A stretch of DNA of 64,000 bases from Candidatus Bipolaricaulota bacterium (GTDB taxonomy: Bacteria > Bipolaricaulota > Bipolaricaulia > Bipolaricaulales > Bipolaricaulaceae). Positions within the stretch are counted from its first letter, which is position 1. Every line of letters begins with the position of its first letter. Below are positions 3,183 to 63,086 of the stretch, piece after piece. The stretch is taken from positions 213,258 to 277,257 of the forward strand of contig JALHJZ010000002.1 of assembly GCA_022838705.1 (NCBI GenBank), in the 5' to 3' direction. A program made the translations under genes and the position numbers. The notes under the pieces were generated by a model. It had not been told where the DNA came from and ran no database searches. It saw nothing but the letters and a program-made list of their open reading frames with translations.

Positions 3183-3240
3183 GCGGGGAGTATACCCACC
3201 GGCAGCGCTACCCCGTACAGAACGGCTATACTGGGCGACC
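3183..3240. promoter_or_regulatory. divergent leaderless promoters for hutI and hutH
   Basis: TATACT on minus (3194-3189) 6 nt before hutI ATG; TATACT on plus (3227-3232) 8 nt before hutH GTG; no SD on either side. Confidence 0.7.
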
Positions 3241-4734
3241 GTGATCGAGCTCGATGGCCATCTCACACCCCAGGACGCGGAGGCGATCGTCCTCGCGGGG
3301 ACCCCGGTCTCCCTCGCCCCCTCCGTGCGGGCGAAGGTCGAGGCTTCGCACCGGGCGCTCCGCGCGATCCTCGGCCGCGGCGAGCCCGTGTACGGGATCA
3401 ACACGGGGTTCGGCGCCTTGTCCACGGTGCGGATCCCGGAACCGGACCTGGCCAAGCTCCAGAGGAATATCGTCCTCTCTCACGCCACGGGGGTCGGCGC
3501 GCCCCTCCCTGACCCGCTCGTGCGGGGGATGCTCCTCTTCCGCCTGAACTCGTTCCTCCAGGGGGCGTCGGGCGTGCGGCCGGAGCTCGTGGACCTCCTC
3601 GTCCACCTCCTCAACGCGGGGGTGCACCCCATCGTCCCCGAGCAGGGCTCCGTCGGCTCGTCGGGGGACCTCGTGCCGCTCGCCCACCTCGCCCTGCCCC
3701 TCCTCGGGGAGGGACGGGCCCGCCTCCACGGGGAGGAGCTCTCTGGAGCGGAGGCCCTGCGCCGGGCCGGCCTCGCCCCGCTTCCGGAGCTCGCCCCCAA
3801 GGAGGGCCTCGCCCTCCTCAACGGGACGTCCTACATGCTCGCCTCCCTGTTCCTGTCCTGGACTATGGGCTGGCGGGCGTTTCAGGCCGGGCTTGCCTGC
3901 GCCGCCCTCTCCTTCCAGGCCCTCCGCGGGAGGACGGAGGCCCTCGATGCCCGGATCCACGCCGCCCGGCCCCACCCTGGGCAGGTCCAGGTCGCCTCCT
4001 GGCTGCGGGAGCTCCTCGCCGGGAGCGCCCTCACCGACTCCCACAACGAGGACGTACAGGACCCGTACTCCCTGCGCTGCCTGCCCCAGCTCCTTGGGCC
4101 GGTGGTGGAGACCCTGTGGGCCGTCGAGGGGCGGCTGCGGGTGGAGATGAACGCGGCCACGGATAACCCGCTCCTCCTCCCCGATGGAGGCGGCACGGCC
4201 CTCGCCGGGGGGAACTTCCACGGGGAGATCCTCGCCTTCGCCGCGGAGTGGCTGGGGATCGCGCTCGCCGAGCTCGGGGCATCGTGCGAGCGGCGGCTGG
4301 CGGCCCTCCTCACCGCGGAGGGGAGGGGGCTCCCGCCGTTCCTCTCCCCAGAACCCGGGACGAGCTCGGGGCTCATGCTCCTCCAGTACACCGCGGCCGC
4401 CCTCGCCGCGGAGAACAAGGTCCTCGCCCACCCCGCCGCGGTGGACTCGATCCCCACCTCGGGGGGGAAGGAGGACCACAACGCGATGGGGGCGACGTCG
4501 GCCTGGAAGACCGGCCGCATCACGGAGAACGTGGCCTCCCAGGTCGCGCTGGAGGGCGTGGCCGCGCGATGGGCGGTGGCCCTCGCCGGGGAGGAGGACC
4601 TCTCGCCGGCGAGCCGGCCCCTCTACGCCGTTCTGGCCGAGCTCGTCCCCCCGCCGGGCGAGGACCGCTACGTGGGCGATGCGATCGGGCGGGTCCGTCA
4701 CGCGATCCAGGAAGGGAGGCTGAACCCAATATGA
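3241..4734 (+). CDS. hutH: histidine ammonia-lyase (MIO tripeptide reads SSG)
   Basis: VYGINTGFG, VLSHATG, GSVGSSGDL, KEGLALLNG, QDPYSLRC, GGNFHG, KEDHNAMG. Confidence 0.9.
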   Translation: MIELDGHLTPQDAEAIVLAGTPVSLAPSVRAKVEASHRALRAILGRGEPVYGINTGFGALSTVRIPEPDLAKLQRNIVLSHATGVGAPLPDPLVRGMLLFRLNSFLQGASGVRPELVDLLVHLLNAGVHPIVPEQGSVGSSGDLVPLAHLALPLLGEGRARLHGEELSGAEALRRAGLAPLPELAPKEGLALLNGTSYMLASLFLSWTMGWRAFQAGLACAALSFQALRGRTEALDARIHAARPHPGQVQVASWLRELLAGSALTDSHNEDVQDPYSLRCLPQLLGPVVETLWAVEGRLRVEMNAATDNPLLLPDGGGTALAGGNFHGEILAFAAEWLGIALAELGASCERRLAALLTAEGRGLPPFLSPEPGTSSGLMLLQYTAAALAAENKVLAHPAAVDSIPTSGGKEDHNAMGATSAWKTGRITENVASQVALEGVAARWAVALAGEEDLSPASRPLYAVLAELVPPPGEDRYVGDAIGRVRHAIQEGRLNPI

Positions 4735-5618
4735 GCTACCGGACCGGCACCGTGGCCGTGGTGGGCCGGACGAACGTCGGGAAGTCCACGTTCATCAACG
4801 CCGTCCTCGGACAAAAGGTCGTCATCGTCTCCCCGCGGCCCCAGACGACGCGCAACCGCATCCGCTGCATCCTCACCACCCCCGAGGCCCAGGTCGTGTT
4901 CGTGGACACGCCGGGGCTCCACCCGCCGGTGAACAAGCTGTCCGCCCACCTCCAGCGGGAGGCGCTGCGCTCCCTCGCGGGCCTCGACGCGGTCGCGTAC
5001 ATGGTCGAGCCGGGCGGGAAGGTGGATCCCTACGACGAGCTCATGCTCCCCAAGATCCAAACCCTCCCCTGCCCGAAGGTCCTCCTCGTCAACAAGAGCG
5101 ACCAAGCACGGGGCAACACCCTCCCCGAGACCCTGCTCGCCTACGACCGCCTGGGGATGTTCAACGACATCGTGCCGATCTCGTCCACGAAGGGCACGAA
5201 CCTCGACCGGGCCCTCGCCGTGATCATCGGCCACCTCCCGGAGGGCACGCCGGCGTACGAGAAGGGCACGACCACCGACCGCCCGCTCGCGTTCGTGGCG
5301 GCGGAAGTGGTGCGGGAGAAGGTGTATGCGGAGACCTACCAGGAGCTCCCCTATGCCACCGCGGTGGCCGTGGAGGAGATCGAGGAGCGGGAGGCCCCGC
5401 CCCTAACCTCGGTCTACGCCACGATCATCGTCGCCAAGGAGTCGCAGAAGGCGATCGTCATCGGGAGCCGGGGGGCGAAGCTGAAGGAGATCGGGACCCA
5501 GGCCCGGGTGGACCTCGAGCAGCTCCTCGGCCACCAGGTGTTCCTCTCCCTCCACGTCAAGGTGAAGCCAAAGTGGACAGAGGACGAGGACGAGGTGGCC
5601 CGCCTCACCGGCGACTGA
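4731..5618 (+). CDS. era: GTPase Era
   Basis: [24 protein letters not shown]; C-terminal KH region [11 protein letters not shown]; ATGA overlap with hutH. Confidence 0.95.
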
Positions 5619-5643
5619 CCTCTCCTCGGGTAAGATCGCTCCC

Positions 5644-7347
5644 GTGCCCAGCGATATGAGCGAACCGGTGGACTTCATCCGCGAGATCATCCGCGACGAC
5701 CTCGCCGCGGGGCGGTTCGACCGGGTTCACACCCGGTTCCCCCCCGAGCCGAACGCCTACCTCCACATCGGCCACGCCCAGGCGATCCTCCTCAACTACG
5801 GGATCGCCCAGGAGTTCGGGGGGAAGTTCAACCTCCGCTTCGACGACACGAACCCGGAGAAGGAGAGCGAGGAGTACGTGGCGGCGATCAAGCGGGACGT
5901 CCGCTGGCTGGGCGCGGATTGGGAGGACCGCGAGTTCTATGCCTCCGATTACTTCGAGCAGCTTTACCAATGGGCCGAGGAACTGATCCGCAAGGGGGTG
6001 GCCTACGTGTGTGACCTCCCGCCAGAGGAGCTCAGCCGCCAGCGCGGCCAGCCGATCCGGGACGGGGACAGGATCATCACCCCCCCGGGCGTGGATAGCC
6101 CGTACCGCAACCGGTCGGTGGAGGAGAACCTCGACCTCTTCCGCCGGATGAGGGCCGGGGAGTTCCCGAGCGGGTCCCGCACCCTGCGCGCCAAGATCGA
6201 CATGGCTCACCCGAACCTCAACATGCGCGATCCTGTCCTGTACCGAATCCTTCATGCCCGCCACCACCGGACGGGGGACACGTGGTGCATCTACCCAAGC
6301 TACGATTGGGCACACGGCCAGTCGGACTCGATCGAGGGGATCACCCACTCCATCTGCACGCTGGAGTTCGAGAACCACCGCCCGCTCTATGACTGGTTCC
6401 TCGACCAGCTCGGCGTCCACCATCCTCGCCAGATCGAATTCGCCCGTCTCAACCTGACCTACACCGTGACGAGCAAGCGGCTCCTCCTCCGCCTCGTCCA
6501 GGAGGGGCACGTGCGGGGATGGGACGATCCCCGGATGCCCACGATCGCCGGGATCCGCCGCCGCGGCTACACCCCGGAGGCGATCGCGGACTTCGTCCGC
6601 CGGATCGGGGTCTCCAAGGCGGAGAGCATCCGCGAGATCGAGCTCCTCGAGCACTGCCTGCGGGACGACCTCAACAAGCGCGCCCCGCGGCGGATGGCGG
6701 TGCTGGAGCCCGTGAAGCTCGTGATCACGAACTACCCGGAGGGGAAGGTGGAGGAGTTCGACGCGGTCAACAACCCTGAGGACCCCTCGTCCGGGACGCG
6801 GGTGGTCCCGTTCTCGCGGGAGCTGTGGATCGAGGAGGAGGACTTCAGGGAGGACCCGCCGCCCGGGTTCTTCCGCCTCGCCCCGGGGCGGGAGGTGCGG
6901 CTGCGGTACGCGTACTTCGTCCGGTGCACGGGCGTCGTGAAGGACCCCTCCGGCCGGGTGGTCGAGGTCCGCTGCACCTACGACCCGGCCACCCGCGGCG
7001 GCGATGCCCCGGATGGGCGGAAGGTGAAGGCGACCCTGCACTGGGTGTCTGCCTCCCACGCCGTGGACGCCGAGGTCCGCCTCTACGACCGCCTGTTCAC
7101 GGTCCCCGATCCCCTCGACGTCCCGGAGGGAGAGGATTGGATCGGGAATCTGAACCCTGACTCCCTCGTCCTCCTCAGGGGGTGCAAGCTCGAGCCGTGC
7201 CTGGGGGAGGTGCAGGCCGGGGAGATGTTCCAGTTCGAGCGGAAGGGGTACTTCTGCGTCGACCCGGATACCAAGCCTGGCCTCCCCGTGTTCAACCGCA
7301 TCGTGACCCTCCGCGATCCGTGGGCCAAGCTCCAGGGCAAGCTGTAG
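5644..7347 (+). CDS. glnS: glutamine--tRNA ligase (start 5644 or 5656)
   Basis: [57 protein letters not shown]. Confidence 0.95.
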
Positions 7348-8823: not shown

Positions 8824-9429
8824 TCACTTCGCGGCGAGGAGACGGCGCACGACCTCGCGCGCCGCGTCCAGGTCGGGGACTTCGTGGTACGCTGCGCCGG
8901 GGGGGAAGTAGGTACGCATCCACTCCCGCGGCGCAACGAGGACCACCGCGGGGATCCCTGCCGCCACCGCGGCCTGGAGGTCGAAGTGGGAATCCCCGAG
9001 GACGAGGGCCTCCTCCGGGCTCAGCCCCAGCCGGGCGAGCGGACCGAGGAACGCCCCGGGGTCGGGCTTGAGAGGCCCGTCGTCCCGCGTGACCACGAGG
9101 TCGAACGGGAGCTCGTGGCGGGCGAGGACGGCATCCGTGCTCTCCCGGGAGTTGTTCGTGACGAGAATGGTCTTCACACCGCTCAAGCGCAGGAAGTCGA
9201 GGAGCTCGCGCGTCCCCGCGCGGAGGCAGCCCCGCTCGACCCCCTCCCGTTCCCGGGCCCGCAGGACCTCCACCGCCTCGGTCCGCCGGGACGGAGGCAG
9301 GTCCGCGATCCCAGCGAGGATCGTGCGACCGTCCGGGGGGAGTCCGAGCTCCTCCCGCACGGCCGTCATCCGGACCGGGGTCTCCCAGATCGTGCCGTCC
9401 ATGTCGATGAGCGCTGCACGGAAGGGCAT
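8824..9429 (-). CDS. HAD-family hydrolase (phosphoglycolate phosphatase-like)
   Basis: IDMDGT motif I, VTNN, KPDP, GDSHFD; TACCAT 7 nt upstream of ATG. Confidence 0.85.
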   Translation of the reverse strand: MPFRAALIDMDGTIWETPVRMTAVREELGLPPDGRTILAGIADLPPSRRTEAVEVLRAREREGVERGCLRAGTRELLDFLRLSGVKTILVTNNSRESTDAVLARHELPFDLVVTRDDGPLKPDPGAFLGPLARLGLSPEEALVLGDSHFDLQAAVAAGIPAVVLVAPREWMRTYFPPGAAYHEVPDLDAAREVVRRLLAAK

Positions 9430-9512
9430 GGGCCCAATGGTACCCGCTCGGGGAGGGACATTGGAACCTGATCTAGCTAAGGCGGTCGAGGAGCGCCGCC
9501 CGGGGGCCATCC

Positions 9513-9598: not shown

Positions 9599-9729
9599 CT
9601 GGTAGAGGGCGCTGTGCATTCTCGCCACGCCCGGGGAAGCCCGCAACCGGCCGCGGGGGTTAGCCGTCTTCACCGGGCCTCCGCCGGCGATCCACGGCGC
9701 CTCCACAGGACACAAGGTAGCGTTGCGCC

Positions 9730-10290
9730 ATGCCGGTGATGCGAACCTGGGCATTTTGGATCGGCCTCGCGGTGGGCGCCCTCGCCGTCCTGGCCGGGGC
9801 AACGGCGGCCCACGCCGCCGAACCCCCCTGTCCGGCCTCCCCGGTCCTCCTGGCAGGGATTGAGGTGGGGAACCGCGTTGGGCAACGGGCGCCGGACTTC
9901 TCCCTTCCCGACTTCTCCGGGAACCCCGTGGACCTGTCCTCATTCCGCGGCTGCCCGGTCCTCCTCGACTTCTGGGCCAGCTGGTGCAAGCCATGTCAGG
10001 TCTCGGTCCCGCTCCTAGAGTCCCTCCGCCAGAGGTACGCCCCGCGGGGGCTGAAGGTGATCGCGGTGAGCCTGGACTACCGCAAGGAAGACGCAACCCG
10101 GTTCCTGGAGGCCTACGGGTACCGCGGGTTCATCGCCCTGTGGGCTCCCTTCACCGAGGCGCGCGCTGTGGCCTACCTGTTCGGGATCCAGGCGATCCCC
10201 CGCACCGTGCTCCTCGACCGGCAGGGCATCATCCGCTTCATCGGCCATCCCCAGGACCTGACCGACGACCTCCTCTCCCCCTGGCTGTGA
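9730..10290 (+). CDS. exported TlpA/ResA-family thiol-disulfide oxidoreductase
   Basis: Signal peptide, APDFSL, LLDFWASWCKPC (CxxC), GIQAIPRTVLLDRQG. Confidence 0.88.
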   Translation: MPVMRTWAFWIGLAVGALAVLAGATAAHAAEPPCPASPVLLAGIEVGNRVGQRAPDFSLPDFSGNPVDLSSFRGCPVLLDFWASWCKPCQVSVPLLESLRQRYAPRGLKVIAVSLDYRKEDATRFLEAYGYRGFIALWAPFTEARAVAYLFGIQAIPRTVLLDRQGIIRFIGHPQDLTDDLLSPWL

Positions 10291-14112: not shown

Positions 14113-14136
14113 CTGGAGGGGCCCTATAATCCCGAC

Positions 14137-14853
14137 GTGGAGGTCCGCATCGGCTGTTGCGGCTGGTCGGCGCTGCCGCCCGGGGAGGAACGGGGCCGGC
14201 ATCGGCTCCAACTCTATGCTGCCCAGTTCCCGCTCGTCGAGGTCAACTCCACGTTCTACCGCCTCCCCTCGCTCGCGACCGTCCGCCGGTGGCGGGATCT
14301 CGCCGATAGCGTAAACCCGCAGTTCGAGTTCACGGTCAAGGCCCACCGCGGGATCACCCACTACGCGCGGTTCCAGGGCCCCCAAGCCCGCGACGGGTTT
14401 GCACGCTCGGTCGAGGTGGCCCGCGCCCTGCGGGCGAGGGTGCTCCTCCTCCAGTGCCCGCCTTCGTTCTCCCCTGGGCCGGACCACGAGGAGGCCCTGA
14501 CCCAGTTCCTCGCCACGGTGGATAGGGGTGAACTCACCCTCGTGTGGGAGCCTCGCGGGCGGTGGGACGAGGAGCCAGAGCGGGTGGCCGCCCTATGCCG
14601 GAAGTACTCCCTCGTCCACGGCACCGACCCGTTCCGGACCCTCCCCGTCACGAGGGGGGAGATCGCGTACCTGCGCCTCCATGGGTCCCCGCCGGGGGCG
14701 CGGATGTACCGCTACACCTACAGCGACCAAGACCTGGCGCGCCTGCGGGACACTGTCCGGGGGCTGGAGGCCGAACGGGTGTATGTGCTCTTCAACAACG
14801 ACACGATGGTCTCCGATGCCCAAAGGTTCGCGGGGAGGTGGGCCACGGGATGA
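14137..14853 (+). CDS. DUF72 domain protein
   Basis: IGCCGW, VEVNSTFY, FTVKA, LLQCPPSF, YLRLHG, YVLFNN; TATAAT 6 nt before GTG. Confidence 0.88.
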   Translation: MEVRIGCCGWSALPPGEERGRHRLQLYAAQFPLVEVNSTFYRLPSLATVRRWRDLADSVNPQFEFTVKAHRGITHYARFQGPQARDGFARSVEVARALRARVLLLQCPPSFSPGPDHEEALTQFLATVDRGELTLVWEPRGRWDEEPERVAALCRKYSLVHGTDPFRTLPVTRGEIAYLRLHGSPPGARMYRYTYSDQDLARLRDTVRGLEAERVYVLFNNDTMVSDAQRFAGRWATG

Positions 14854-16554: not shown

Positions 16555-17579
16555 ATGCCCTCCGTCTCGTTTGGGTCCCCAAACTTATTCCATGCCACCA
16601 CAGCTGACAAGGGCTTCCGCTCCCGTGGCCCGAGCTCGATCGCGCGGTGCTTATCGCTGAGCGTGCTCGCCTCGCCCCGCTTCCCGATGACGATGAGCGC
16701 GATGAGGATGTACTCCTCCGGGATCCCCAGCGCCTCCTTGACGGCGGGGGGGTCGTAGCCGGCGATGGGGTGGGCGACGAGCCCCATCTGGGTCGCCTGG
16801 ATCATGAGCAGGCCGGTGGCCATTCCACACCCGAATAGGAAGTAGTCGCGCCCATCGGAGAGCTTGCAGTCGAGGTCGCGGTGGCTGGCGAGGGCGAGGA
16901 TCGCCGGGGCACGCTTCGCCCAGTAGTTCCCCCCGGACAGGGCCCCCTTCACCCTGTCCAGCGTTTCCCCTTCCGCGATCACGAACCGCCACGGCTGGTT
17001 GTTGAAGCAGGAGGGGGCGAGGTGGGCCGCCTCGACCAGCCGCTCGAGCGCCTCCCGGGCCACGGGCTCCCCGGACAGGGCACGGTACGCCCGCCGGGCA
17101 CGGATGAGCGGGTTGATGGCCTCGTCCGCGGCCTGCAGCGCCCGCAGCGTGACGAGAACCTCCTCCGCGTGGCCGGCCGCCTTCCCCCGCCGCCATGCCC
17201 AGCGCACGGACCCCGCCCGGTCGAGGAGGAACGTCGCCCGCTGGACCCGGCCCGCGGGCGTGACGACGCAATAGGCCCTCGCCACAGCGCGGTCGGGATC
17301 GGAAAGCAGGGTGAGGCCCCCGCCCGCCGCGAACCGGGCGAGGGTGGAAGGGGAATCGGGCGCGATCCCCACCAGCCGTGCCCCGAGGGAGGTGAACTCG
17401 GGGAGGAGGGCCTGGAAAGCGCGGGCCTCCTCGGCCCAGGCAGGCGTCCCGGCGCGGGGGAAGAAGTGCAGGACGACGTACGAGCCCCTCAGCTCGCGGA
17501 GCGAGACCGCCCCGCCCGCCGCCGACGGCAGCGTGAACTCGGGGGCCAGCCCAACCAGGTTTATCCGGTCCTCGGCCAT
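16551..17579 (-). CDS. fusion of a BCP/peroxiredoxin-like domain lacking the peroxidatic Cys and a nitroreductase
   Basis: N-terminal APEFTLP..VVLHFFPRAGTPAWAEEA..RATFLLD; C-terminal RRAYRA, APSCFNNQPWRF. Confidence 0.8.
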   Translation of the reverse strand: MAEDRINLVGLAPEFTLPSAAGGAVSLRELRGSYVVLHFFPRAGTPAWAEEARAFQALLPEFTSLGARLVGIAPDSPSTLARFAAGGGLTLLSDPDRAVARAYCVVTPAGRVQRATFLLDRAGSVRWAWRRGKAAGHAEEVLVTLRALQAADEAINPLIRARRAYRALSGEPVAREALERLVEAAHLAPSCFNNQPWRFVIAEGETLDRVKGALSGGNYWAKRAPAILALASHRDLDCKLSDGRDYFLFGCGMATGLLMIQATQMGLVAHPIAGYDPPAVKEALGIPEEYILIALIVIGKRGEASTLSDKHRAIELGPRERKPLSAVVAWNKFGDPNETEGI

Positions 17580-17624
17580 GGGAGGGATGATAGCCCCCCC
17601 TCCCGGGCCGGCAACCCGCGCGCG

Positions 17625-18554
17625 TCAGAAGCCGAGCTCGATCCCGACCGTGCTCTGAATGAGGCCGCCGAAATCGAACTGCGTCCGGGAGTAGATGCGG
17701 ACCCAGGAGAACGCCACCTCCACCCACACCTCCTGGGACACGAACCCTCCAAGGTCGAACGCGGTCACAAGCCGGATCGCGACCGGCGGCACCCGCACTC
17801 CGAGGAACAGCTTCGCCCAGTCCAGGCCGAAGCTCCCGGTGAAGTTGAGGCGGAGCCGCGCGCCGAGCTCGGCCTCCGGATCCGGGTAGATGTAGCTCGC
17901 CCCGAGCTCGCTCCACGCGAGGCCGTACGGGTTGAAGAGGACCCGGGAGTCGGCGCGGAAACAGGCGCCCGTGAACCCCAGGTGGAGGAGCTCCTCCTCG
18001 AACCACACCCCAGACACCGCAGCGAGGTCGGTGGCGGGGTCGTCGTCGAGCAGGGAGTCGAGCCCCGTCACGCCGAACCCGGTGAGGCTGCGGGCGAAGA
18101 ACCCCGGGTGCCACGCGACGCCGAGGTCGAGGACAAGCCCGACCGTGTAGTCTGGATCATCACACGGTAGCGCGAGGTTCTCAACGAGGAACAGCCCCCC
18201 GAGCTCCCACGGGCAACACCCCCCGCGGACCTCGAACCAGTACTTGGAGAAGCACGGGTCGAACCTCATCCCGCTTTGGAGGCCGATCCCATCGAGATCA
18301 ACCCCCACCGTGAGGTACGCGGCCTCAAGCCCTGTGAGGGAGAGCTCCGTTCGGCTGATGACCTCCGCCCGGTCGTATGCGAGGGCGAGGGTGACGGCGG
18401 ACGCGAGGTCGAGCGAAGAGGACAACGGCGTGACGGCAACCTCGATCCCGAGTGAGCCGGAGAAGGCCGGGGATTGGGACCAGGATGTGGCACCCCACAC
18501 CAGGGTCACTGCGAGCACACCCAGGAGACGCTTTCTCATCTCAGACCACCTCAT
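17625..18554 (-). CDS. exported beta-strand-rich hypothetical protein (outer-membrane barrel-like)
   Basis: Signal peptide (RKRLLGVLAVTLVWG), alternating hydrophobic strands, C-terminal GIELGF; start 18554 or 18539. Confidence 0.6.
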   Translation of the reverse strand: MRWSEMRKRLLGVLAVTLVWGATSWSQSPAFSGSLGIEVAVTPLSSSLDLASAVTLALAYDRAEVISRTELSLTGLEAAYLTVGVDLDGIGLQSGMRFDPCFSKYWFEVRGGCCPWELGGLFLVENLALPCDDPDYTVGLVLDLGVAWHPGFFARSLTGFGVTGLDSLLDDDPATDLAAVSGVWFEEELLHLGFTGACFRADSRVLFNPYGLAWSELGASYIYPDPEAELGARLRLNFTGSFGLDWAKLFLGVRVPPVAIRLVTAFDLGGFVSQEVWVEVAFSWVRIYSRTQFDFGGLIQSTVGIELGF

Positions 18555-18600
18555 GGGAGGAGGGTACGGAGATGACCAGGCCCAGCGGGGCACACCGGAC

Positions 18601-19952: not shown

Positions 19953-20079
19953 GGATTCACCTCAAGTTAGATGGTGTCGCAACGGCGGGATTATACCCGA
20001 TCCCGGCCCGGGTGAGGCTTCACGATGGCCCCGGCGGCGGACCGGCATCCCCGGCCCGGACCGGGGATAATGGGGGCTT

Positions 20080-21243: not shown

Positions 21244-21313
21244 CCGGGGGAGACGAACACCGCCGGTCCCCGGAACACGGATCACGAATAGCGGCGAGCT
21301 GTATAATCCGTGC

Positions 21314-27430: not shown

Positions 27431-27510
27431 ACCCTGATCCTAACGGACCCGCCCCGGGCGGACCACGGGGCTGTGGACCGGGCGCAGACCGAGGGGTACC
27501 ATACGTTCTT

Positions 27511-31336: not shown

Positions 31337-31358
31337 CGTCCCTCCTTTCCCGCGATCT

Positions 31359-32732: not shown

Positions 32733-32782
32733 GGCACGATCATACCCCCCCAGCGCGCGCCCCCGCCAGTCCCCGACGTGCA

Positions 32783-37240: not shown

Positions 37241-37303
37241 GCTCGCCTCCTTCACTCCGCTCGATGATACCGCGGGACGCCCGAGCGGACCGGCGATGGG
37301 CGC

Positions 37304-47658: not shown

Positions 47659-48113
47659 CGCCGCCCCTGTTCCCCTTCGTACACGAGGCGGGCGCTCGTG
47701 ATCCGCGCGAACGGGATCGCGACCTCCACGCCCTCGCTCTCGACGGTGACCGCCTCCGCTGTCGCTCGAACGAGCCGCCCGCGCTGGGTCCCCTCCGATC
47801 CTAGTTTGATCTGAACGAGCTTCCCTACCGCCTGGGCGTAGTGGCGCGGCTCCCACAGCCCGCGCTCCAGGCCCGGGGACGACACCTCGAGGAGGTAGGA
47901 CGAGGGCAAGGGATCGGCCTCATCCAACAGGGCGCCGATCGCCCGGTTGGCGCGGGCGCAGTCGTCCACCGTCACGCCCCCTGGACGATCCACCTGCACG
48001 GTGAGGTAGACCCGCGCCCCCGCCCGGCGGAGCTCCCAGTGGTACACCTCCACGTCAGCCGCGGCCGCGCCTTGGTGCACGAGTGCATCGAGCTTTTCCT
48101 GAACCCCCTCCAT
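47655..48113 (-). CDS. rimP: ribosome maturation factor RimP
   Basis: GVTVDDCA, YLLEVSSPGLER, ARLV. Confidence 0.92.
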   Translation of the reverse strand: MEGVQEKLDALVHQGAAAADVEVYHWELRRAGARVYLTVQVDRPGGVTVDDCARANRAIGALLDEADPLPSSYLLEVSSPGLERGLWEPRHYAQAVGKLVQIKLGSEGTQRGRLVRATAEAVTVESEGVEVAIPFARITSARLVYEGEQGRR

Positions 48114-48136
48114 GTTGGGGATTATACTTGCCGTCA
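48114..48136. promoter_or_regulatory. bidirectional promoter with overlapping -10 boxes
   Basis: ATTATACT at 48121-48128 gives TATAAT on minus (7 nt before rimP ATG) and TATACT on plus (8 nt before rluD GTG). Confidence 0.7.
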
Positions 48137-49042
48137 GTGACGGACACAACGAGCGGAATTCGTAGAGATCGCATCCTCGTGGGGGAGGGCGAGGACGGGG
48201 AGAGGCTGGACCGGCTGCTTGCGCGCCGGCTGGCGATCCCCCGATCCCAGGCCCAGTCGCTCATCGCGAGCGAAGCGGTCCGCATCGGGGGGAGGACGCC
48301 CTCCCGGTCGCGCCGGCTGAGGGCGGGAGAGGAGATCGAGGTGACCTGGAGCGGGCCGGGGATCGTCCCCACCCCGGCCGCGATCCCTGTTCTGTACGAA
48401 GATAGCGACCTGATCGTGGTCAACAAGCCCCGCGGGCTCCCCGTACACCCGGGGGGGCCTGGGACCACAGTATCGGTGGTGTCCATCCTCCTCGCCCGAG
48501 GGCCCCTTGCCCCCGCTGCCCCCAACCGGCCGGGGGTGGTCCATCGGTTGGACGCCGCCACAACGGGAGCCCTCGTGGTGGCGAAGACCCCGGTTGCGCT
48601 GGAGGGGCTGATCGCGCAGTTCCGGGCGCGCACGGTGAAGAAGGAGTACCTCGCGGTCGTGCACGGGGCCCTCACGGTGGACGAGGGGACCATCGCCGGG
48701 CGGATCGGGCGCGATGCCGCCCGCCCATGGCGGATGCGCATCGGGGGGGCGAAGGATGCCCACACCGAGTTCTCCGTCCTCGCCCGGCGAGAGGACGAGG
48801 CCCTGCTCGTCGTCCGGCCACGCACGGGACGGACCCACCAGATTCGGGTCCACCTGGCGACAATCGGGCACCCTGTCGTCGGCGATCCCCTCTACGGGAG
48901 GGGAGGGGGACCGCTGCTCCTCCACGCGTGGCGGCTCGGGTTCCGCCACCCCGCTAGCGGGGCATGGATGGAGTGCGAGGCGGAACCTCCGCCGGAGTTC
49001 GCGTCGTGGTTCGGCGGACGAGGTAGTACACCCCCGCGATGA
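48137..49042 (+). CDS. rluD: RluA/RluD-family pseudouridine synthase
   Basis: S4 RLDRLLA, VVNKPRG, VVHRLD, TGRTHQIRVH, GDPLYG, LHAWRLGFRHP. Confidence 0.9.
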   Translation: MTDTTSGIRRDRILVGEGEDGERLDRLLARRLAIPRSQAQSLIASEAVRIGGRTPSRSRRLRAGEEIEVTWSGPGIVPTPAAIPVLYEDSDLIVVNKPRGLPVHPGGPGTTVSVVSILLARGPLAPAAPNRPGVVHRLDAATTGALVVAKTPVALEGLIAQFRARTVKKEYLAVVHGALTVDEGTIAGRIGRDAARPWRMRIGGAKDAHTEFSVLARREDEALLVVRPRTGRTHQIRVHLATIGHPVVGDPLYGRGGGPLLLHAWRLGFRHPASGAWMECEAEPPPEFASWFGGRGSTPPR

Positions 49043-49490
49043 ACTGTCCCCCCACCGCGCCCCAGAATACGCCGATCGCGCGGGGGGAGAGGAGGAGGAG
49101 GCCGGCCGCGAGCGCGGTGAGCCCGGCCGCAGCCTTCCCTGGCCACTCCGCCACGAACTCCTGCCGCCGTTGCCACAGGACAAGGGCCCCCACCGCCAGT
49201 CCGAGCTGGGGAAAAGCGAACAGCCCCAACCCGAAGTACGGGATCCGTCCCACCACGGCGAGGGCGGAAAAGAGGGCAAGGTAGAACGCCTTGTCCACCA
49301 GGGGATCGAGGAGCTGGCCCACGATCGTGACCTGATGGCCCCTCCGCGCTACCCAGCCGTCGAGGATGTCCGTCGCCAGCGCGACCACGAACAGGATGAG
49401 GGCGGCCCGCCAGTGGCCACCCAAGACGGCGATCACGGTGGGCACCGCGAGCAGCCCCCGCAGCGTGGTGAGGGCATTGGCGAGCGTCAT
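48954..49490 (-). CDS. pgsA: CDP-alcohol phosphatidyltransferase (phosphatidylglycerophosphate synthase-like)
   Basis: ANALTTLR, TDILDGWVARR, GQLLDPLVDK. Confidence 0.85.
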   Translation of the reverse strand: MTLANALTTLRGLLAVPTVIAVLGGHWRAALILFVVALATDILDGWVARRGHQVTIVGQLLDPLVDKAFYLALFSALAVVGRIPYFGLGLFAFPQLGLAVGALVLWQRRQEFVAEWPGKAAAGLTALAAGLLLLSPRAIGVFWGAVGGQFIAGVYYLVRRTTTRTPAEVPPRTPSMPR

Positions 49491-49539
49491 CCCCGGCATG
49501 GTACCCTCGCTCGCCGGGAAGGCCAACCGCACCGGCGAG

Positions 49540-51313: not shown

Positions 51314-51814
51314 TCACATCCGGCGCGACGTCGCCCAGCGCAGGGATCCCGGCTGGACCGAGGTACACCGAAACCCGGCCTTCGCAAGGACGCGGATCGA
51401 GGCAGCGTTCTCCGGCGCACACTCCGCAACGACCCGCCCCACCTCGGGATGAGTGAACGCCCAACCGATGAGGGCGTGCACCGCTTCGGTGGCGTGGCCC
51501 TGCCCGCGGAAAGCGGGAGCGGTCCCGTACCCGATCTCCACGGTCCCGTCCGGAGCAGGCCGGCCCTTGAACCCCGCATCCCCCACGATCGCGTTCGCCC
51601 CCCGATCGATGGAGATCCAAATCCCCCACCCGAGGGCGCTCGGGTCGTGGAGGAGCTCCTGGAGGTAGAGGGGGAGGATCCCCGTGAGTTCCGGCGATGG
51701 CCAGCCGGGCGGGACCGCGGCGCCGAGGATCCGCTCCGCCCCCTCGCTGAGAAGCGTCTGGGCGACCTCAACGGGACAGGCCACGAGCGCGAGCCGGCGG
51801 GTGGGGAGGATCAT
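51314..51814 (-). CDS. RimJ/RimL-family GNAT acetyltransferase
   Basis: VGDAGF, VEIGYG, FRGQGHATEA, NAASIRVLAKAGF. Confidence 0.88.
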   Translation of the reverse strand: MILPTRRLALVACPVEVAQTLLSEGAERILGAAVPPGWPSPELTGILPLYLQELLHDPSALGWGIWISIDRGANAIVGDAGFKGRPAPDGTVEIGYGTAPAFRGQGHATEAVHALIGWAFTHPEVGRVVAECAPENAASIRVLAKAGFRCTSVQPGSLRWATSRRM

Positions 51815-51969
51815 CCTCCCACCGTATCCAGAACCACCGCTAGTCGCCTCGACCCTCCCGCCACGAGGGAGAACCCGATCGTGGAGATGAGGACGGACTG
51901 GAGGTCCCGCGGGGAGAGGCCAATTGCGCGGAACGGGTGAACGAGGGCCCCCAGGCCTTGACGGCTCAC
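51811..51969 (-). CDS. putative 52-aa small protein
   Basis: GTGA overlap with the trmD stop and ATGA overlap with the GNAT start; host-like C/G-ending codons; hydrophobic core. Confidence 0.35.
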   Translation of the reverse strand: MSRQGLGALVHPFRAIGLSPRDLQSVLISTIGFSLVAGGSRRLAVVLDTVGG

Positions 51970-53187: not shown

Positions 53188-54498
53188 TCACCTCATCACT
53201 GGAACGCGTCCGCCCCCTCCCGGGGGCCGTCGCTGCTTGCCTAACCCGCGCACAAGGCGCCGCGCCTGCTCGTATTGGGACAGAAGCTGATTCACTTCCT
53301 GAACAGTAGTTCCCGAACCGCGGGCGATCCGGCGCTTGCGGCTGGCCCCGATTATATGGGGGTGGCGCCGCTCCTCAACCGTCATCGATTGGATGATGGC
53401 CCGTGCCCGCTTGAGCTCGGACTCCATCTCCGCGTCGGGGGCGACCTTCCCCAGGCCGGGGATCTTGGCGAGGAGCTGGTCCAAGGGTCCGGCGCGGCTC
53501 ATCGCCTCGAACTGGATGAGGAAGTCCTCGAGGGTGAACGTCCCCTCCCGCACCCGGGCCGCCGTGGCCGCGACCTCCTCCCCCCCCGCCTCGGCGAGCT
53601 TCTCCGCCAGCCCAGCCAGATCGCCGAACCCGAGGATCCGGTCCGCCATCCGCCCGGGATCGAACGGTTCGAGGTCCTCGGGCTTCTCCCCCACCCCCAC
53701 GAACAGGACTGGCTTCCCAAGCCGGGTCGGCAGGGAGAGGGCGGCCCCTCCGCGCGCATCCCCGTCGAGCTTGGTGAGGATGAGCCCCGTGATCCCGAGG
53801 GGGGCGAACGCCTCGCCCATCCGCACCGCCTCCTGGCCCACGAGCGCGTCGAGGACGAGGAGGAGATCGCTTGGCTCAACTGAGGCCACGAGATCGGCCA
53901 CGAACGGGGGAGGCGCCACTCCGGGGGGGGTGCCCGGCGTGTCCACGATCAGGACATCGCGGAGCTCCCGCCGGGCCCGCTCCGCCGCGCGCTCCACCTC
54001 GACGACGGGGTCCTCCACCGCTGGGGTGAACGCGATCCCGAGCCGCGAGGCCAAGGTCGCGAGCTGCTCCGCCGCCGCAGGGCGCTGCGGGTCGGCGCAC
54101 ACGAGGAGGGGCTGGCGCCCCTTGCGGAGGAGGTGCCGCGCCAGTTTCCCCGCGGTGGTCGTCTTCCCCGATCCCGCTGGGCCCACGAGGAGGACGATCG
54201 CCGGCCGTCCCGCCAGGCGGAGCTTGGCCGCCTCGCCCCCCATCGCCGTCGCCATCTCCGCCCGCACAATCCCCAGGAGCTGCTCGGCAGGGGCGAGCGA
54301 CTCCACGACCTTCTCCCCCACCGACCGTTCCTCGACCCGCGCCAAGAGATCGCGCACCACCCCGTAGTGGACATCGGCCGCGAGGAGGGCCTGCCGGATC
54401 TCGCGCAGCCCGGCCTCGACCTCCGCCGGGGTGAGCCGCCCGGGGGCACGAAGCCTCTGGAACGCCTGGGACAGCCGCTCGGTCAATGACTCAAACAC
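53188..54498 (-). CDS. ffh: signal recognition particle protein
   Basis: MFESLTERL, ALLAADV, GSGKTTT, DTPG, TKLDGDARGG, SMTVEER, RIARGSG. Confidence 0.95.
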   Translation of the reverse strand: MFESLTERLSQAFQRLRAPGRLTPAEVEAGLREIRQALLAADVHYGVVRDLLARVEERSVGEKVVESLAPAEQLLGIVRAEMATAMGGEAAKLRLAGRPAIVLLVGPAGSGKTTTAGKLARHLLRKGRQPLLVCADPQRPAAAEQLATLASRLGIAFTPAVEDPVVEVERAAERARRELRDVLIVDTPGTPPGVAPPPFVADLVASVEPSDLLLVLDALVGQEAVRMGEAFAPLGITGLILTKLDGDARGGAALSLPTRLGKPVLFVGVGEKPEDLEPFDPGRMADRILGFGDLAGLAEKLAEAGGEEVAATAARVREGTFTLEDFLIQFEAMSRAGPLDQLLAKIPGLGKVAPDAEMESELKRARAIIQSMTVEERRHPHIIGASRKRRIARGSGTTVQEVNQLLSQYEQARRLVRGLGKQRRPPGGGGRVPVMR

Positions 54499-54606
54499 AA
54501 CGGTGAAGTCTACGTCCCGCGAGACCGGCCAACAACGACCGCATCCGGGACCGAGACCTGGGCCGGGGCGAACCTCGACTATAATCGCTACCGAGGTGAT
54601 GGAGAG

Positions 54607-55908
54607 GTGACTCCAGAGTCGCAAGGTATCGTTCTTTTTCTTCTCCTACTTCTCTCCGCTTTTTTCTCCGCTTCTGAGACGGCATTGTCTGCTCTTTCCG
54701 AGCTCCGGGTGTTCCACCTCCTTCGCCGGACCTCTTCAAAACAGAAGGTAAAGGCCCTCGAGCACCTGATGCGCGATCCCAACGACTTCATCACCTGCAT
54801 TGTCATCTACAACAACCTCGTCAACGTCGGGGCATCGAGCCTGGCCACCCTCCTCTTCCTGCGCCTCCTCCCGACCCTCCCTGAGTACGCGCAAGGCCTC
54901 ATCTCCACGGTCGTCCTGACGACGCTCCTCCTCCTCATCGGGGAGATCACCCCCAAGAACATCGCCCGCAACCGCCCGGAGGCAGTGGCGATGGCGGTGA
55001 TCGTCCCCGTGTGGCAGCTTACGCGGGCCTCCCATCCCGTGGTGCGGTTCTTCCGCAGGGCGGGGGCGTACCTGGTACGTCCGTTTGGGATCGAATTCTT
55101 CTCCCGGGAGCGGGCGTCGCTGTCCAGGGACCAACTCGTGTCCATCATCGAGCTGGGGGAGGAACGGGGGGCCCTCTCCCGAGATCATGGGGACATGATG
55201 CGGCGGATCCTCGCCCTGGACGAGATCACGGCTGAGGACATCATGGTCCCCCGCACCGACATGAAGACGATCGAGGTGGGGACCCCCCTGGCCGAGGTGG
55301 TGAAGTTCATCGTTTCCGACGGCCACTCCCGCTATCCGGTGTACCAGGGGACGCAAGACAACGTGGTCGGGCTCCTCCATGCCAAGGACCTCCTTGCCCA
55401 CCTCGGGGAGCCCCCGGCGAGCGTTTCCCTCACCTCCCTCCTCCGCCCGGTCTCGTTCACGCCGACTACGAAGCCGATCGGTGCCCTCCTCCAGGAGTTC
55501 CAACGGGAGCGGTCCCACATGGCGGTGGTCGTGGACGAGTACGGGGGGGTAGTGGGGATCGTGACCCTGGAGGACATCCTCGAGGAGATCGTGGGGGAGA
55601 TCGAGGACGAGTACGACCGCCGCCGCCCCCGGCCCCTCATCCGCCGCCTGTCCCCGACCGAGGCGATCGTAGGCGGGGACGCCGAGGTCCGCACGGTGAA
55701 CCGGAGCCTGGGGGCGGACCTTCCCGAGGACGAAGCGGTGACGATCGCCGGGCTCGTCCTAGAACGCCTGGGCGACATCCCGGAGGTCGGGACGAAGCTT
55801 CACATCGGACGGACCGAGATCACGGTCGAACGGGCGAGCGCCCGCGAGATCACGACCGTCCGCCTCACCCTGCATCCCGAACCCAAACCCGACGAAGAGC
55901 CCACCTAG
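54607..55908 (+). CDS. CNNM/hemolysin-family CBS-domain membrane protein (CorC/HlyC C-terminus)
   Basis: SAFFSASETAL, GEITPK, MVPRTD, HSRYPV, VVDEYGG, LEEIVGEIEDEYD. Confidence 0.92.
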   Translation: MTPESQGIVLFLLLLLSAFFSASETALSALSELRVFHLLRRTSSKQKVKALEHLMRDPNDFITCIVIYNNLVNVGASSLATLLFLRLLPTLPEYAQGLISTVVLTTLLLLIGEITPKNIARNRPEAVAMAVIVPVWQLTRASHPVVRFFRRAGAYLVRPFGIEFFSRERASLSRDQLVSIIELGEERGALSRDHGDMMRRILALDEITAEDIMVPRTDMKTIEVGTPLAEVVKFIVSDGHSRYPVYQGTQDNVVGLLHAKDLLAHLGEPPASVSLTSLLRPVSFTPTTKPIGALLQEFQRERSHMAVVVDEYGGVVGIVTLEDILEEIVGEIEDEYDRRRPRPLIRRLSPTEAIVGGDAEVRTVNRSLGADLPEDEAVTIAGLVLERLGDIPEVGTKLHIGRTEITVERASAREITTVRLTLHPEPKPDEEPT

Positions 55909-58555: not shown

Positions 58556-58570
58556 GCGAGAGGAGGAGAG

Positions 58571-61345: not shown

Positions 61346-62352
61346 CTCCAGACGCCGGGGATCGCCCCACCGCAGTGCGGGCAATGGCCCTCGAGGAGCG
61401 CGTTCCTGACGACCTGGAACCCGTAGCGGCGGATGACGAGCCGGCCGCAGGAGGGGCAGATCGTGTCCTCCCCCTCGCCGGGGAAGTTCCCCAGGTACAC
61501 GAACCGCAGGCCCGCCGCGCGCCCGATGTCCCGCGCCCGGCGGAGGGTCTCCAGCGGGGTCGGCGGGAGGTCCTGGGCCCGGTAGGAGGGGACGAACCGC
61601 GACACATGCCATGGAATATCGGGAGAGACCCCGGCCAGGAACTGCGCGATCCATCCCAGCTCCTCGTCGGAGTCGTTCCGTCCCGGGATGATGAGCGTCG
61701 TCACCTCGACCCAGATCCCGTGGGCCACCATCCGCCGGATCGTGTCGAGCACCGGCTGGAGGGAGGCGCCACAGTACCGGCGGTAGAAGTCGTCCGAGAA
61801 CGCCTTGAGGTCCACATTGGCCGCGTGGAGCCAGCCATGGGCCGCGGCAAGGGCTTCCTCGGTCAGGTAGCCATTGGTGACGAAGGCATTCCGGATCCCC
61901 TGTCCGTGGGCGATCCTCCCCGTGTCGTAGCACATTTCGAAGAACACCGCCGGCTCGGTGTAGGTGTAGGCGATGATCGGGGCGTGGGTGTCCCGAGCGG
62001 CCCGCACCACGTCCTCGGGCGAGACAGGTTCCCCGAGGATCCCCCCCCGGTGCTCCCGCGGGTACTGAGAGATGATGTAGTTCTGGCAGAAATCGCACCG
62101 GAAGTTGCACCCCATCGCGGCGATGGAGAGGGCCGGCGAGCCGGGGAGGAAGTGGTAGAGGGGTTTCTTCTCGATCGGGTCGAGGGTCTGGGACACAAGG
62201 CGGCCGTAGACGAGGGTGTGGAGCGTCCCGTTTTGGTTCTCGCGGACGGCGCACACGCCGCGCCCCCCGGGGGGGATGAGGCATCGGTGGGCGCAGAGCG
62301 TGCACCGCACCCGTCCCTCCCCGGCTCCTTCCCACAGCATCGCCTCGCGCAT
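61342..62352 (-). CDS. amrS: AmmeMemoRadiSam system radical SAM enzyme
   Basis: CTLCAHRC, DPIEKKPLYHF, GCNFRCDFCQN (CxxxCxxC), YTYTEP, NVDLKAF, CPSC...CPHC. Confidence 0.9.
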   Translation of the reverse strand: MREAMLWEGAGEGRVRCTLCAHRCLIPPGGRGVCAVRENQNGTLHTLVYGRLVSQTLDPIEKKPLYHFLPGSPALSIAAMGCNFRCDFCQNYIISQYPREHRGGILGEPVSPEDVVRAARDTHAPIIAYTYTEPAVFFEMCYDTGRIAHGQGIRNAFVTNGYLTEEALAAAHGWLHAANVDLKAFSDDFYRRYCGASLQPVLDTIRRMVAHGIWVEVTTLIIPGRNDSDEELGWIAQFLAGVSPDIPWHVSRFVPSYRAQDLPPTPLETLRRARDIGRAAGLRFVYLGNFPGEGEDTICPSCGRLVIRRYGFQVVRNALLEGHCPHCGGAIPGVWS

Positions 62353-62423
62353 CGCGGGATTATCGTACGTCGGCACGTCTGGGCCTGGCAAGGAACCGCT
62401 GTCCCCGGGTATCCTCGCTTCCG

Positions 62424-63086
62424 ATGTCACCATCGGACGCGATCGCTCAGCGTTGCCGGGAGGTCCTGCGGCGGGTTCCACCCGGGGTGACGGTCGTCGC
62501 GGCGACGAAGGGGCGGGTGCCGGACGAGGTCCGCCAGGCGATCGCGGCGGGGATCGGCCACATCGGGGAGAACTATGTCCAGGACGCGGAACGAAAGAGG
62601 GGGGCCGTCCCCGAGCCGGCGACGTGGCACATGATCGGCCGCCTCCAGACGAACAAGGTGAACCGGGCAGCGCGGGCCTTCGACTGGGTGCAGACGATCC
62701 ACTCACCCGAGCTCGCCCGGCGGCTTTCCGCATCCTGCGCCGCCCACGGGAAGGAGCTTCCCGTCCTCCTCCAGGTCAACATCGGCCGCGAGCCCAACAA
62801 GGGGGGAGCTCTCCCCAAGGAGATCCCCGCCCTCGCGCAGGAGGTCCGCGCCCTCCCCTCGCTCCACCTGCGGGGCCTGATGGCCATCCCCCCCGCCGGG
62901 GAGAGGCCGGAGGACACGCGGCCCTACTTCCGGGCGATGCGGAAGCTCTTCGCAGCGCTACAGGATGAAGGCTTTGACCTCGATACCCTGTCCATGGGGA
63001 TGAGCGCGGACTGGGAGGTGGCCGTCGAGGAAGGGGCGACGATGATCCGCCTCGGCACCCTCCTCTTCGGCCCCCGGCTGGGTTGA
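62424..63086 (+). CDS. yggS: PLP homeostasis protein YggS
   Basis: VVAATK, GENYVQ, WHMIGRLQTNK, GLMAIP, LSMGMSAD, IRLGT. Confidence 0.95.
   Translation: MSPSDAIAQRCREVLRRVPPGVTVVAATKGRVPDEVRQAIAAGIGHIGENYVQDAERKRGAVPEPATWHMIGRLQTNKVNRAARAFDWVQTIHSPELARRLSASCAAHGKELPVLLQVNIGREPNKGGALPKEIPALAQEVRALPSLHLRGLMAIPPAGERPEDTRPYFRAMRKLFAALQDEGFDLDTLSMGMSADWEVAVEEGATMIRLGTLLFGPRLG

Follow-up and report, generated by a model that had tools for sequence, protein, structure and literature searches.

Where do transcription and translation begin at genes whose start codon lies directly behind a promoter-like hexamer? This question is raised by a 64-kb stretch of DNA (69.6% GC), referred to in its whole length as the window, from an uncultured bacterium of Candidatus Bipolaricaulota (Acetothermia). 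The original prediction for this stretch listed a TANNNT box 6-8 nucleotides (nt) before the start codons of many genes, and proposed leaderless initiation as the default for first genes. We found that this box-to-start arrangement is enriched far beyond chance, is conserved among relatives and is not accompanied by Shine-Dalgarno (SD) sequences. From the motif, its position, its enrichment and conservation, the absence of SD sites and the usage of start codons, we infer the position of the transcription start site (TSS) and the mode of translation. Approximately 17-19 of the approximately 61 genes in the window probably (at roughly 80%) use a sigma-70-type -10 element that abuts the start codon, which would give leaderless or near-leaderless mRNAs free of SD sequences.

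Spacing between the hexamer and the start codon

The TANNNT hexamer is rare at the GC content of the window, with 188 occurrences on both strands together. When ATG and GTG codons downstream of these hexamers were counted, we found 15, 10 and 15 cases at spacers of 6, 7 and 8 nt, respectively, and approximately 4-5 cases at each of the other spacers. For the three spacers combined, 40 cases were observed versus approximately 14 expected (Poisson p ~1e-8), and 17 versus 2.6 remained when a long open reading frame (ORF) with high GC content at third codon positions and a nearby upstream stop codon were required (p ~3e-9). The coordinates on which the prediction was based were exact: all 18 combinations of TANNNT box, spacer and start agreed in position and strand, as did the two GATAAT variants, at 20080 on the plus strand and at 62352.

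In a free-choice control, 63 genes were called by codon-usage log-odds, with the motif unused, and every in-frame candidate start was allowed (a mean of 3.7 per gene); TANNNT was then counted at spacers x to x+2. As a result, 23 of the 63 genes were boxed at 6-8 nt, compared with 3.45 +/- 1.8 genes, and a maximum of 8, for the other 3-nt windows. Starts picked by eye thus cannot create the signal, and the earlier statement that an AT-rich hexamer at this fixed spacing is unlikely to be chance was confirmed by all three comparisons.

The arrangement was also present in gene calls made by third parties. In seven other Bipolaricaulota loci, which comprise 142 genes and in which many of the boxed genes are unrelated to those of the window, TANNNT was found at 6-8 nt 21 times versus 3.8 expected (p = 7e-10), and the boxed starts in other Bipolaricaulota genomes comprised 15 ATG, 8 GTG and no TTG codons. 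The 6-8 nt peak was wider and weaker in two more distant relatives with 55% GC, and no such peak was found in eleven high-GC loci from other phyla (3 versus 4.5). A raw motif-anchored test over 22 ffh-centred loci gave just 79 versus approximately 59 cases, and stricter ORF rules gave 36 versus 13.6, with ffh itself accounting for 22 of the 36. This test was dropped in favor of per-gene ortholog checks and third-party calls because orthologous repeats inflate both the signal and the background. The box-to-start signal in the window is real and is due neither to chance nor to the choice of starts.

Organization of box-led and SD-led genes

For anatomy counts, 61 genes were curated in the window. 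TANNNT was located 5-9 nt before the start codon in 19 of them, with the GATAAT site as a twentieth. Among the 18 genes with a divergent upstream neighbor, 12 carried the box (hutI, hutH, HAD, tlpA, trmY, trkA, dnaB, rimP, rluD, ffh, amrS and yggS), and the GNAT-like gene would raise this number to 13. Among same-strand followers, the box was found at 7 of 43 genes (cmk, glnS, DUF72, Prx, ATP-cone, pgsA and g51814), so that it is preferentially located at first genes (Fisher p = 2e-4). The statement that nearly all box-led genes head a transcription unit was accordingly correct for the 12 or 13 genes that head divergent units, but not for glnS, DUF72, Prx, ATP-cone, pgsA and g51814, which follow same-strand genes at gaps of 24-151 nt. 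The cmk site (TACCGT with 8 nt, at 1162), which is absent from the original list, was not counted as leaderless, as its ATG overlaps the upstream stop codon (ATGA) and its box lies inside coding sequence.

No SD was found in the would-be transcribed spacer of any of the 19 box-led genes, whereas an SD was present in 33 of the 41 other genes. The 6-8 nt between box and start at the box-led genes are C-rich and variable in sequence; in g51814, GGGAGG directly abuts the ATG and cannot act as an SD. Internal operon genes have a strong SD (GGAGG, GAGGTGAT) or an ATGA or GTGA stop-start overlap, 4-nt overlaps of this kind forming thirteen gene junctions, as the original prediction had indicated for most of the other internal genes. 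Very strong sites (AAGGAGG, GAGGTGAT) occur at internal operon genes, rpsB and rpsP. The start codons of the box-led genes in the window comprise 11 ATG, 8 GTG and no TTG, and TTG starts are used by the SD-led gcvH and rpsB.

The boxed starts are in accordance with the boundaries of known protein families. Pfam models open at residues 1-5 of trmY, pgsA, trkA, HAD, yggS and ffh, with residue-model positions of 1-1 for trmY and pgsA, 4-2 for trkA and HAD and 5-4 for yggS, and they open at sensible positions in the other proteins. In hutH, position 1 of the Lyase_aromatic model corresponds to protein residue 8, and in HAD, motif I (DMDGT) would be lost if a later start were used. The start codons of rimP and rluD are 24 base pairs (bp) apart and those of hutI and hutH 59 bp apart, distances so small that no room is left for a leader.

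Conservation of the box-led starts

Two NCBI metagenome-assembled genomes encode a DnaB identical to that of the window, and the DNA of the window was found in anaerobic-digester, activated-sludge, landfill and oil-field metagenomes. Among GTDB species representatives, the nearest Ffh loci all belong to Candidatus Bipolaricaulota (63-86% identity), and the ATP-cone kinase and GlnRS are 98% and 96% identical, respectively, to proteins named Ca. Bipolaricaulis anaerobius. The closed genome of the latter was described by Hao et al. 2018 (PMC6092417), where promoters, SD sites and leaderless genes are not mentioned. The ffh synteny in the GTDB loci does not reach rimP, rluD or pgsA; the orthologs of these genes were reached via NusA homologs (loci L160-L162).

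The ffh gene of all 22 Bipolaricaulota species compared has TANNNT 6-8 nt before a GTG or ATG that opens MFESLTERL. The hexamer was TAGACT in 15 species, TAGAAT in 4 and TAAACT, TACACT or TAGGAT in one each; 21 of the 22 had a TTGnnn 16-18 nt ahead of the hexamer, and the sequence of the spacer between box and start varied freely. In dnaB, 19 of 19 distinct relatives (metagenome upstream sequences, 61-99% protein identity) have an in-frame GTG 5-6 nt after a TAAGAT, TATGAT, TATCAT or TAACAT hexamer. The N-terminus of DnaB is up to 10 codons shorter in some relatives, and since the in-frame GTG keeps its 5-6 nt despite this shift, box and start codon move together. In trkA, all nine relatives share an 8-nt spacer behind TACCAT or TAGGAT, and their proteins open with MYLIVVGAGG; TTGnCn is found at -35.

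Similar results were obtained for other box-led genes. The trmY box (TAGGAT at 6 nt) is kept in four of four metagenome relatives and in L165, and the yggS box is kept as TATCCT at 7 nt in three of three relatives. The pgsA box is conserved in 4/4, being TAAGAT at 6 nt, TATGAT at 7 nt and TAACAT at 6 nt in L160, L161 and L162, respectively, with a conserved N-terminus (MTLAN), and the ATP-cone kinase box is likewise conserved in 4/4, with TATAAT at 8, 5 and 6 nt in L163, L164 and L165. In rimP, TATAAT is found in 4/4, and AAGTATAATG is invariant in L160-L162, at start distances of 13, 8 and 8 nt; in rluD, cATTATACTt is invariant in the same three loci, where the starts are located 10, 11 and 21 nt from the box. 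The DUF72 relatives have TATAAT at 7 nt (L161) and a degenerate TGTAAT at 5 nt in a gene tightly coupled to its upstream gene (L162).

At amrS, the box had been read as GATAAT at 6 nt. The relatives do not support this reading: six of six have TACGAT at 8 nt or TACCAT at 7-9 nt together with a conserved TTGCCA -35, which assigns the window box to TACGAT at 9 nt, overlapped by GATAAT. The yggS -35 (TGGCAA) overlaps this TTGCCA on the opposite strand. The tlpA site and the GATAAT site at 20080 are exact in their coordinates but weak as sites. In the latter, which belongs to a GNAT-like gene, an in-frame TAA lies inside the box, so that 20080 is the first possible start, and a close relative (L165) has the same GATAAT, 8 nt and ATG.

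Across the orthologs, the hexamer never changes at positions 1, 2 and 6, whereas positions 3-5 and the bases of the spacer vary and the length of the spacer is preserved; -35 elements are also found at the trkA, amrS/yggS and pgsA orthologs. Judged by sequence, this pattern of conservation is the signature of a -10 element. The coordinates of the sites, together with those of the leadered comparators, are given in Table 1.

The hut genes were compared with L166. Here, hutI keeps TATACT, 7 nt and ATG; at hutH, the box is retained and the spacer is again 8 nt long, although its sequence differs. Both boxes persist in spite of two indels in the intergenic region. As a separate observation, a block between the two boxes, CGCTACCCCG (3207-3216), is also kept in L166 despite the flanking indels and may be a hut operator. 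Third-party gene calling misjudged both hut genes in L166 (6302-9095): hutH was given 24 surplus codons, beginning at an SD-like stretch within hutI, and hutI came out too short.

Table 1. Candidate box-led starts and leadered or mini-leader comparators in the window (positions in nt)
Gene	Region	Strand	Hexamer	Distance to start	Start codon	Remarks
hutI	3180-3194	-	TATACT (3189-3194)	6 nt	ATG 3182	coding potential begins at 3182
hutH	3227-3243	+	TATACT (3227-3232)	8 nt	GTG 3241	
glnS	5631-5646	+	TAAGAT (5631-5636)	7 nt	GTG 5644	same-strand gene upstream, 25-nt gap
HAD hydrolase	9427-9442	-	TACCAT (9437-9442)	7 nt	ATG 9429	
tlpA-like redoxin	9718-9732	+	TAGCGT (9718-9723)	6 nt	ATG 9730	weak candidate, poor hexamer
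DUF72	14125-14139	+	TATAAT (14125-14130)	6 nt	GTG 14137	candidate internal promoter
Prx-nitroreductase	17577-17592	-	TATCAT (17587-17592)	7 nt	ATG 17579	
'barrel' gene	18537-18566	-	TACCCT (18561-18566)	21 nt	ATG 18539	mini-leader with SD GAGGTGG
GNAT-like gene	20066-20082	+	GATAAT (20066-20071)	8 nt	ATG 20080	uncertain, weak
ATP-cone/PRK kinase	21302-21316	+	TATAAT (21302-21307)	6 nt	GTG 21314	
trmY	27428-27442	-	TAGGAT (27437-27442)	6 nt	GTG 27430	
trkA	27497-27513	+	TACCAT (27497-27502)	8 nt	ATG 27511	-35-like TGGACC/TTGACn ~17 nt upstream
dnaB	32730-32744	-	TATGAT (32739-32744)	6 nt	GTG 32732	third-party call gives the same start
rpsB	32806-32858	+	TATACT (32806-32811)	44 nt	TTG 32856	leadered, with AAAGGAGGAGG
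g37240	37238-37269	-	TATCAT (37264-37269)	23 nt	ATG 37240	mini-leader with AAGGAGG
rimP	48111-48126	-	TATAAT (48121-48126)	7 nt	ATG 48113	heads rimP-nusA
rluD	48120-48139	+	TATACT (48123-48128)	8 nt	GTG 48137	alternative hexamer GATTAT (48120-48125)
pgsA	49488-49503	-	TACCAT (49498-49503)	7 nt	ATG 49490	
g51814	51812-51826	-	TACGGT (51821-51826)	6 nt	ATG 51814	166-aa (amino acid) ORF, extra candidate; 151-nt gap upstream
ffh	54496-54535	-	TAGACT (54507-54512)	8 nt	GTG 54498	-35 TTGTTG (54530-54535), 17 nt from hexamer
g54607	54580-54609	+	TATAAT (54580-54585)	21 nt	GTG 54607	mini-leader with GAGGTGAT
amrS-like radical SAM gene	62350-62367	-	TACGAT (62362-62367)	9 nt	ATG 62352	
yggS	62410-62426	+	TATCCT (62410-62415)	8 nt	ATG 62424	

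Proposed promoter architecture and downstream starts

In the proposed architecture, a sigma-70-type promoter would have a TAnnnT -10 element, often with G-rich bases ahead of it, that is separated from the ATG or GTG by 6-8 nt (rarely 5 or 9), and a weak TTGnnn -35 element would sit 16-18 nt further upstream of the -10 element. RNA polymerase would start at, or a few bases from, the purine of the start codon, and the resulting mRNA would have no 5' untranslated region (5' UTR), or one of at most approximately 6 nt, and no SD. Because such an mRNA would lack both SD and leader, it would be expected to take the leaderless route of translation, with the ribosome binding straight to a start codon at the 5' end. 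This layout would be the usual one for the heads of transcription units, and several internal promoters would share it. A second class of promoters would produce a mini-leader of approximately 10-16 nt that holds an SD alone, and the highly expressed rpsB would have a longer SD leader.

Several genes of the window have a box that is separated from the start by a leader. In addition to rpsB, g19952 is leadered, with TATAAT and 37 nt. The 'barrel' gene, g37240 and g54607 form a conserved mini-leader class, in which a stretch of 17-23 nt with nothing but a strong SD separates the box from the start, with a predicted 5' UTR of approximately 10-16 nt. The SD of g37240 is kept in all relatives, and the box and SD of g54607 are kept in approximately 17 relatives. 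SD sequences are also conserved in relatives at gcvH, rpsP, a pheT-like gene and g55919; for gcvH (30953-31336), the TTG start behind AAAGGAGG is kept in 24 relatives (L083-L106).

The existence of mini-leaders raises the possibility that the promoters are real and that the true starts lie downstream behind an SD, the boxed ATG or GTG being merely located at the TSS. This explanation holds for the 'barrel' gene, which had been listed as leaderless from ATG 18554. That ATG coincides with the predicted TSS and lacks conservation: three relatives have no ATG at 6-8 nt but one 17-19 nt behind the box, with AGGAGG or GAGGAGG in between, and these agree with a start at ATG 18539 behind GAGGTGG in the window. 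The same layout is found at g37240 and g54607. Furthermore, the Prx-nitroreductase gene of L162 has TATAAT and a 16-nt gap with an SD-like stretch, which corresponds to a mini-leader, and the majority of GlnRS homologs correspond in their start to ATG 5656, with one homolog (P0245) opening with MPS at the position of GTG 5644. At the other sites, however, neither an SD nor a suitable later start is available. The Pfam models that open at residues 1-5, the N-termini of ffh, trkA and pgsA that are conserved from the boxed codon and the dnaB GTG that moves with its box also argue against downstream starts, and we consider them improbable as an explanation of the box-led genes as a whole.

Metatranscriptome contigs and the position of transcript ends

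RNA evidence was taken from assembled, direction-less Logan contigs of metatranscriptomes, which derive from a strain approximately 95% identical to the window, and was treated as weak. The contig ends are fuzzy, and some of them are graph artefacts or adapters. Illumina adapter letters were observed on contig ends at 32712 and 29652 in run X28, which limits the reading of contig ends as transcript ends.

As evident from three runs, the ffh contigs ended at 54496, ~54488 and 54486, that is, 2-12 nt inside the start, and none of them crossed 54498. The yggS contigs began at 62439, 62439 and 62464 (+15, +15 and +40), and the glnS contigs began at 5661 and 5668 (+17 and +24), with the end of the upstream gene uncovered. 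Contigs of rluD began at 48131 and 48133 (-6 and -4), with 47979-48130 uncovered, and those of trkA began at 27507, 27526 and 27550. The trmY contigs ended at 27412 (X26) and 27403 (X27), a hutI contig ended at 3168 and an ATP-cone contig began at 21324 (both X28). The contigs of rpsB, which served as a leadered control, began 12-22 nt upstream of the start codon, and those of the Prx-nitroreductase gene ran through from the upstream gene. Taken together, the RNA contigs are mixed, with a lean towards a TSS at or near the start codon.

Several observations weigh against start codons at the very 5' end of the mRNA. The rluD and trkA contig starts located 4-6 nt upstream of the start codon suggest short leaders rather than none. 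Run X26 holds a trkA contig that reaches ~27459 (approximately -50) and an ATP-cone contig that begins at 21290 (-24). The hutH contigs (X27 and X28) begin at 3211, 30 nt upstream of the start, and a longer hutH isoform is possible; the amrS contigs extend 8 to ~46 nt upstream of the ATG; and the GNAT contigs of X26 and X27 reach back to 19976, more than 100 nt upstream of the start. Several intergenic regions, dnaB/rpsB among them, are bridged by contigs of these two runs, and run X25 holds a 61-kb contig, so that carry-over of DNA is possible. Among the relatives, the distance from box to start increases to 10-13 nt (rluD, rimP in J31 and glnS in L166, the latter at 11 nt) and to 21 nt (rluD in L162), and glnS has a leader with an SD in the distant relatives with 55% GC. 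Finally, the -35 element is weak at many sites of the window, which have a G-rich stretch before the box instead.

Some of these observations would be expected if transcripts started well upstream and TANNNT served as an AT-rich, unstructured or S1-binding aid to SD-independent initiation on leadered mRNAs. Contigs cover the upstream sequence at the hutH, amrS and GNAT starts and at some trkA, dnaB and ATP-cone starts, and a good -35 is missing at many sites. This coverage is explicable by divergent partner transcripts, read-through or DNA, and the ffh contigs stop at the start codon in all three runs. The conservation of T1, A2 and T6 with a free middle is the signature of a -10 element and not that of general AT-richness; the TTGnnn element in front of the ffh hexamers, with its counterparts at trkA, amrS/yggS and pgsA, points in the same direction. 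In addition, the same hexamer serves leadered genes from 21-44 nt away, which indicates that it acts as a promoter, and the 23-nt spacer between rimP and rluD offers promoters no other place. Upstream transcription starts are thus a still less probable explanation than downstream translation starts. An artefact of choice, in which GC-rich DNA always offers some ATG or GTG 6-8 nt after a rare AT-rich hexamer, could be suspected from starts picked by eye, a mechanical ORF track with longer ORFs and 3.7 candidate starts per gene, but is very improbable, being rejected by the free-choice control (23 versus 3.45 +/- 1.8), the third-party calls (21 versus 3.8) and the conservation in orthologs.

A -10 element abutting the start codon therefore remains the favored reading. 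Since the box-to-start distance drifts to 10-13 nt in relatives of rluD, rimP and glnS, several genes are probably near-leaderless, with leaders of 2-6 nt, and it is safer to call them 'near-leaderless', with predicted leaders of 0-6 nt. The proposal of leaderless initiation as the default for first genes, including dnaB and ffh, was in this way retained in part: the box is conserved and favors first genes, but several of the genes would be near-leaderless and individual sites had to be corrected.

The rimP/rluD spacer and two-way promoters

The spacer between rimP and rluD was found to contain overlapping -10 boxes, AAGTATAAT on one strand and ATTATACTT on the other (region 48108-48142; around 9500-9550 in L160-L162), and four genera-level relatives share its 9-bp core, ATTATACTT, unchanged. 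The top-strand (G/C)ATTAT (48120-48125) and the bottom-strand TATAAT (48126-48121) pair at positions 2 and 6. The predicted TSSs of the two genes, 48132 and 48114, are 18 bp apart, and the contigs begin at 48131 and 48133. The spacer looks like a putative symmetric two-way promoter. It resembles the symmetric bidirectional promoters of Warman et al. (bioRxiv 10.1101/2020.01.31.928960) in having two overlapping -10 elements, one on each strand, that pair at positions 2 and 6. In contrast to that type, both arms would give leaderless or near-leaderless mRNAs of conserved housekeeping genes, with starts 24 bp apart. The TSSs of rimP and rluD are predicted from sequence, and the alternative reading TATACT (48123-48128) would give another offset.

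Every TANNNT reads as NANNNT on the opposite strand, and the boxes of hutI, trmY, ffh and yggS give predicted partner TSSs at ~3200, 27448, 54518 and 62404, respectively. In a post hoc comparison, contig ends at 3211, ~27459, ~54518 and ~62392-62398 were located 0-12 nt inside these predicted sites. Counter-examples were also found, namely X27 contigs that start at 54503 and 27507 and an X28 contig covering 27208-27509. Purely as a hypothesis, two-way firing could explain the upstream RNA at hutH, trkA, g54607 and amrS as second, leadered isoforms.

A broader picture can be drawn only tentatively, and we regard it as rather doubtful in its entirety. Bipolaricaulota would be a further phylum-level lineage in which most operon-leading genes are leaderless (dnaB, ffh and rimP-nusA among them). 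Its promoters may fire both ways, so that divergent pairs share one compact promoter, with starts down to 24 bp apart, and each gene has a second, leadered isoform from the box of its neighbor.

Additional observations on neighboring genes

The dnaB gene heads the operon dnaB-gcvH-gcvPA-gcvPB (28180-32732), an unusual grouping with which third-party gene calls agree. A trmY-type methyltransferase gene (26843-27430; full-length match to Pfam PF04013) is present in the window bacterium and its relatives; the trmY family is mostly archaeal. The convergent rluD (plus strand) and pgsA (minus strand) overlap at their 3' ends by 89 nt (48954-49042), and their relatives in L160-L162 overlap by 50-140 nt. 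Downstream of nusA, a 981-aa ORF (43953-46898) was considered as infB and rejected, as the gene calls of relatives give an MMPL/SecDF-like membrane protein; its start is uncertain, with an apparent overlap of approximately 50 nt with the end of nusA. Rfam and tRNA scans of the window revealed two tRNAs only and nothing that touches the question of leaderless genes.

Comparison with known leaderless systems and implications

Leaderless genes led by a 'TA' signal were described computationally by Zheng et al. 2011 (PMC3160421), and GeneMarkS-2 (bioRxiv 10.1101/193490) defines a 'group C' of genomes with a Pribnow box 6-8 nt from the starts of first genes and an SD at the other genes, in which 25-50% of operons are leaderless. 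The overall layout in the window is similar to that of leaderless genes in Actinobacteria (Mycobacterium, Streptomyces and Corynebacterium) and Deinococcus-Thermus, where TAnnnT is located 6-8 nt before operon-first genes and the rest have an SD. The extent is also comparable: approximately 20-40% of genes or 25-50% of operons in the known lineages, and approximately 30% of the genes and 12-13 of the 18 divergently headed units in the window. As in known leaderless genomes with more than 60% GC, the middle hexamer positions are uninformative and both ATG and GTG are used. Internal operon genes, rpsB and rpsP rely on canonical SD-led initiation as in E. coli and Bacillus, which is absent from the box-led genes.

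Two differences were noted. The TSSs of Actinobacteria and Deinococcus-Thermus have been mapped experimentally, whereas those of Bipolaricaulota are predicted from sequence, and Bipolaricaulota are absent from the phyla listed by Zheng et al. 2011 and in the GeneMarkS-2 work. In agreement with the original prediction, which knew of no description in this lineage, no paper on leaderless genes in Bipolaricaulota or Acetothermia came up in our literature search; a search for TSS mapping in Thermotoga yielded nothing relevant. The architecture is thus a known one (leaderless, with the group C layout); the lineage alone is new, and no new mechanism is involved.

With the box-to-start rule, N-termini and promoter positions can be fixed in this lineage, which is known solely from metagenomes. 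SD-dependent gene finders and longest-ORF tracks misplace starts in Bipolaricaulota, as seen for hutH and hutI in L166. The economy of 5' UTRs would be extreme, with leaders of 0-6 nt or a bare SD, and the rimP/rluD spacer offers a compact, conserved test case for two-way promoters. The findings would also add a lineage to those whose operon-leading and essential genes are normally initiated by the leaderless route. Deinococcota, Synergistota, Thermotogota and Bipolaricaulota group together in the tree. If the broader, tentative picture of Bipolaricaulota given above were confirmed, it would support leaderless initiation as an old trait of this part of the tree.

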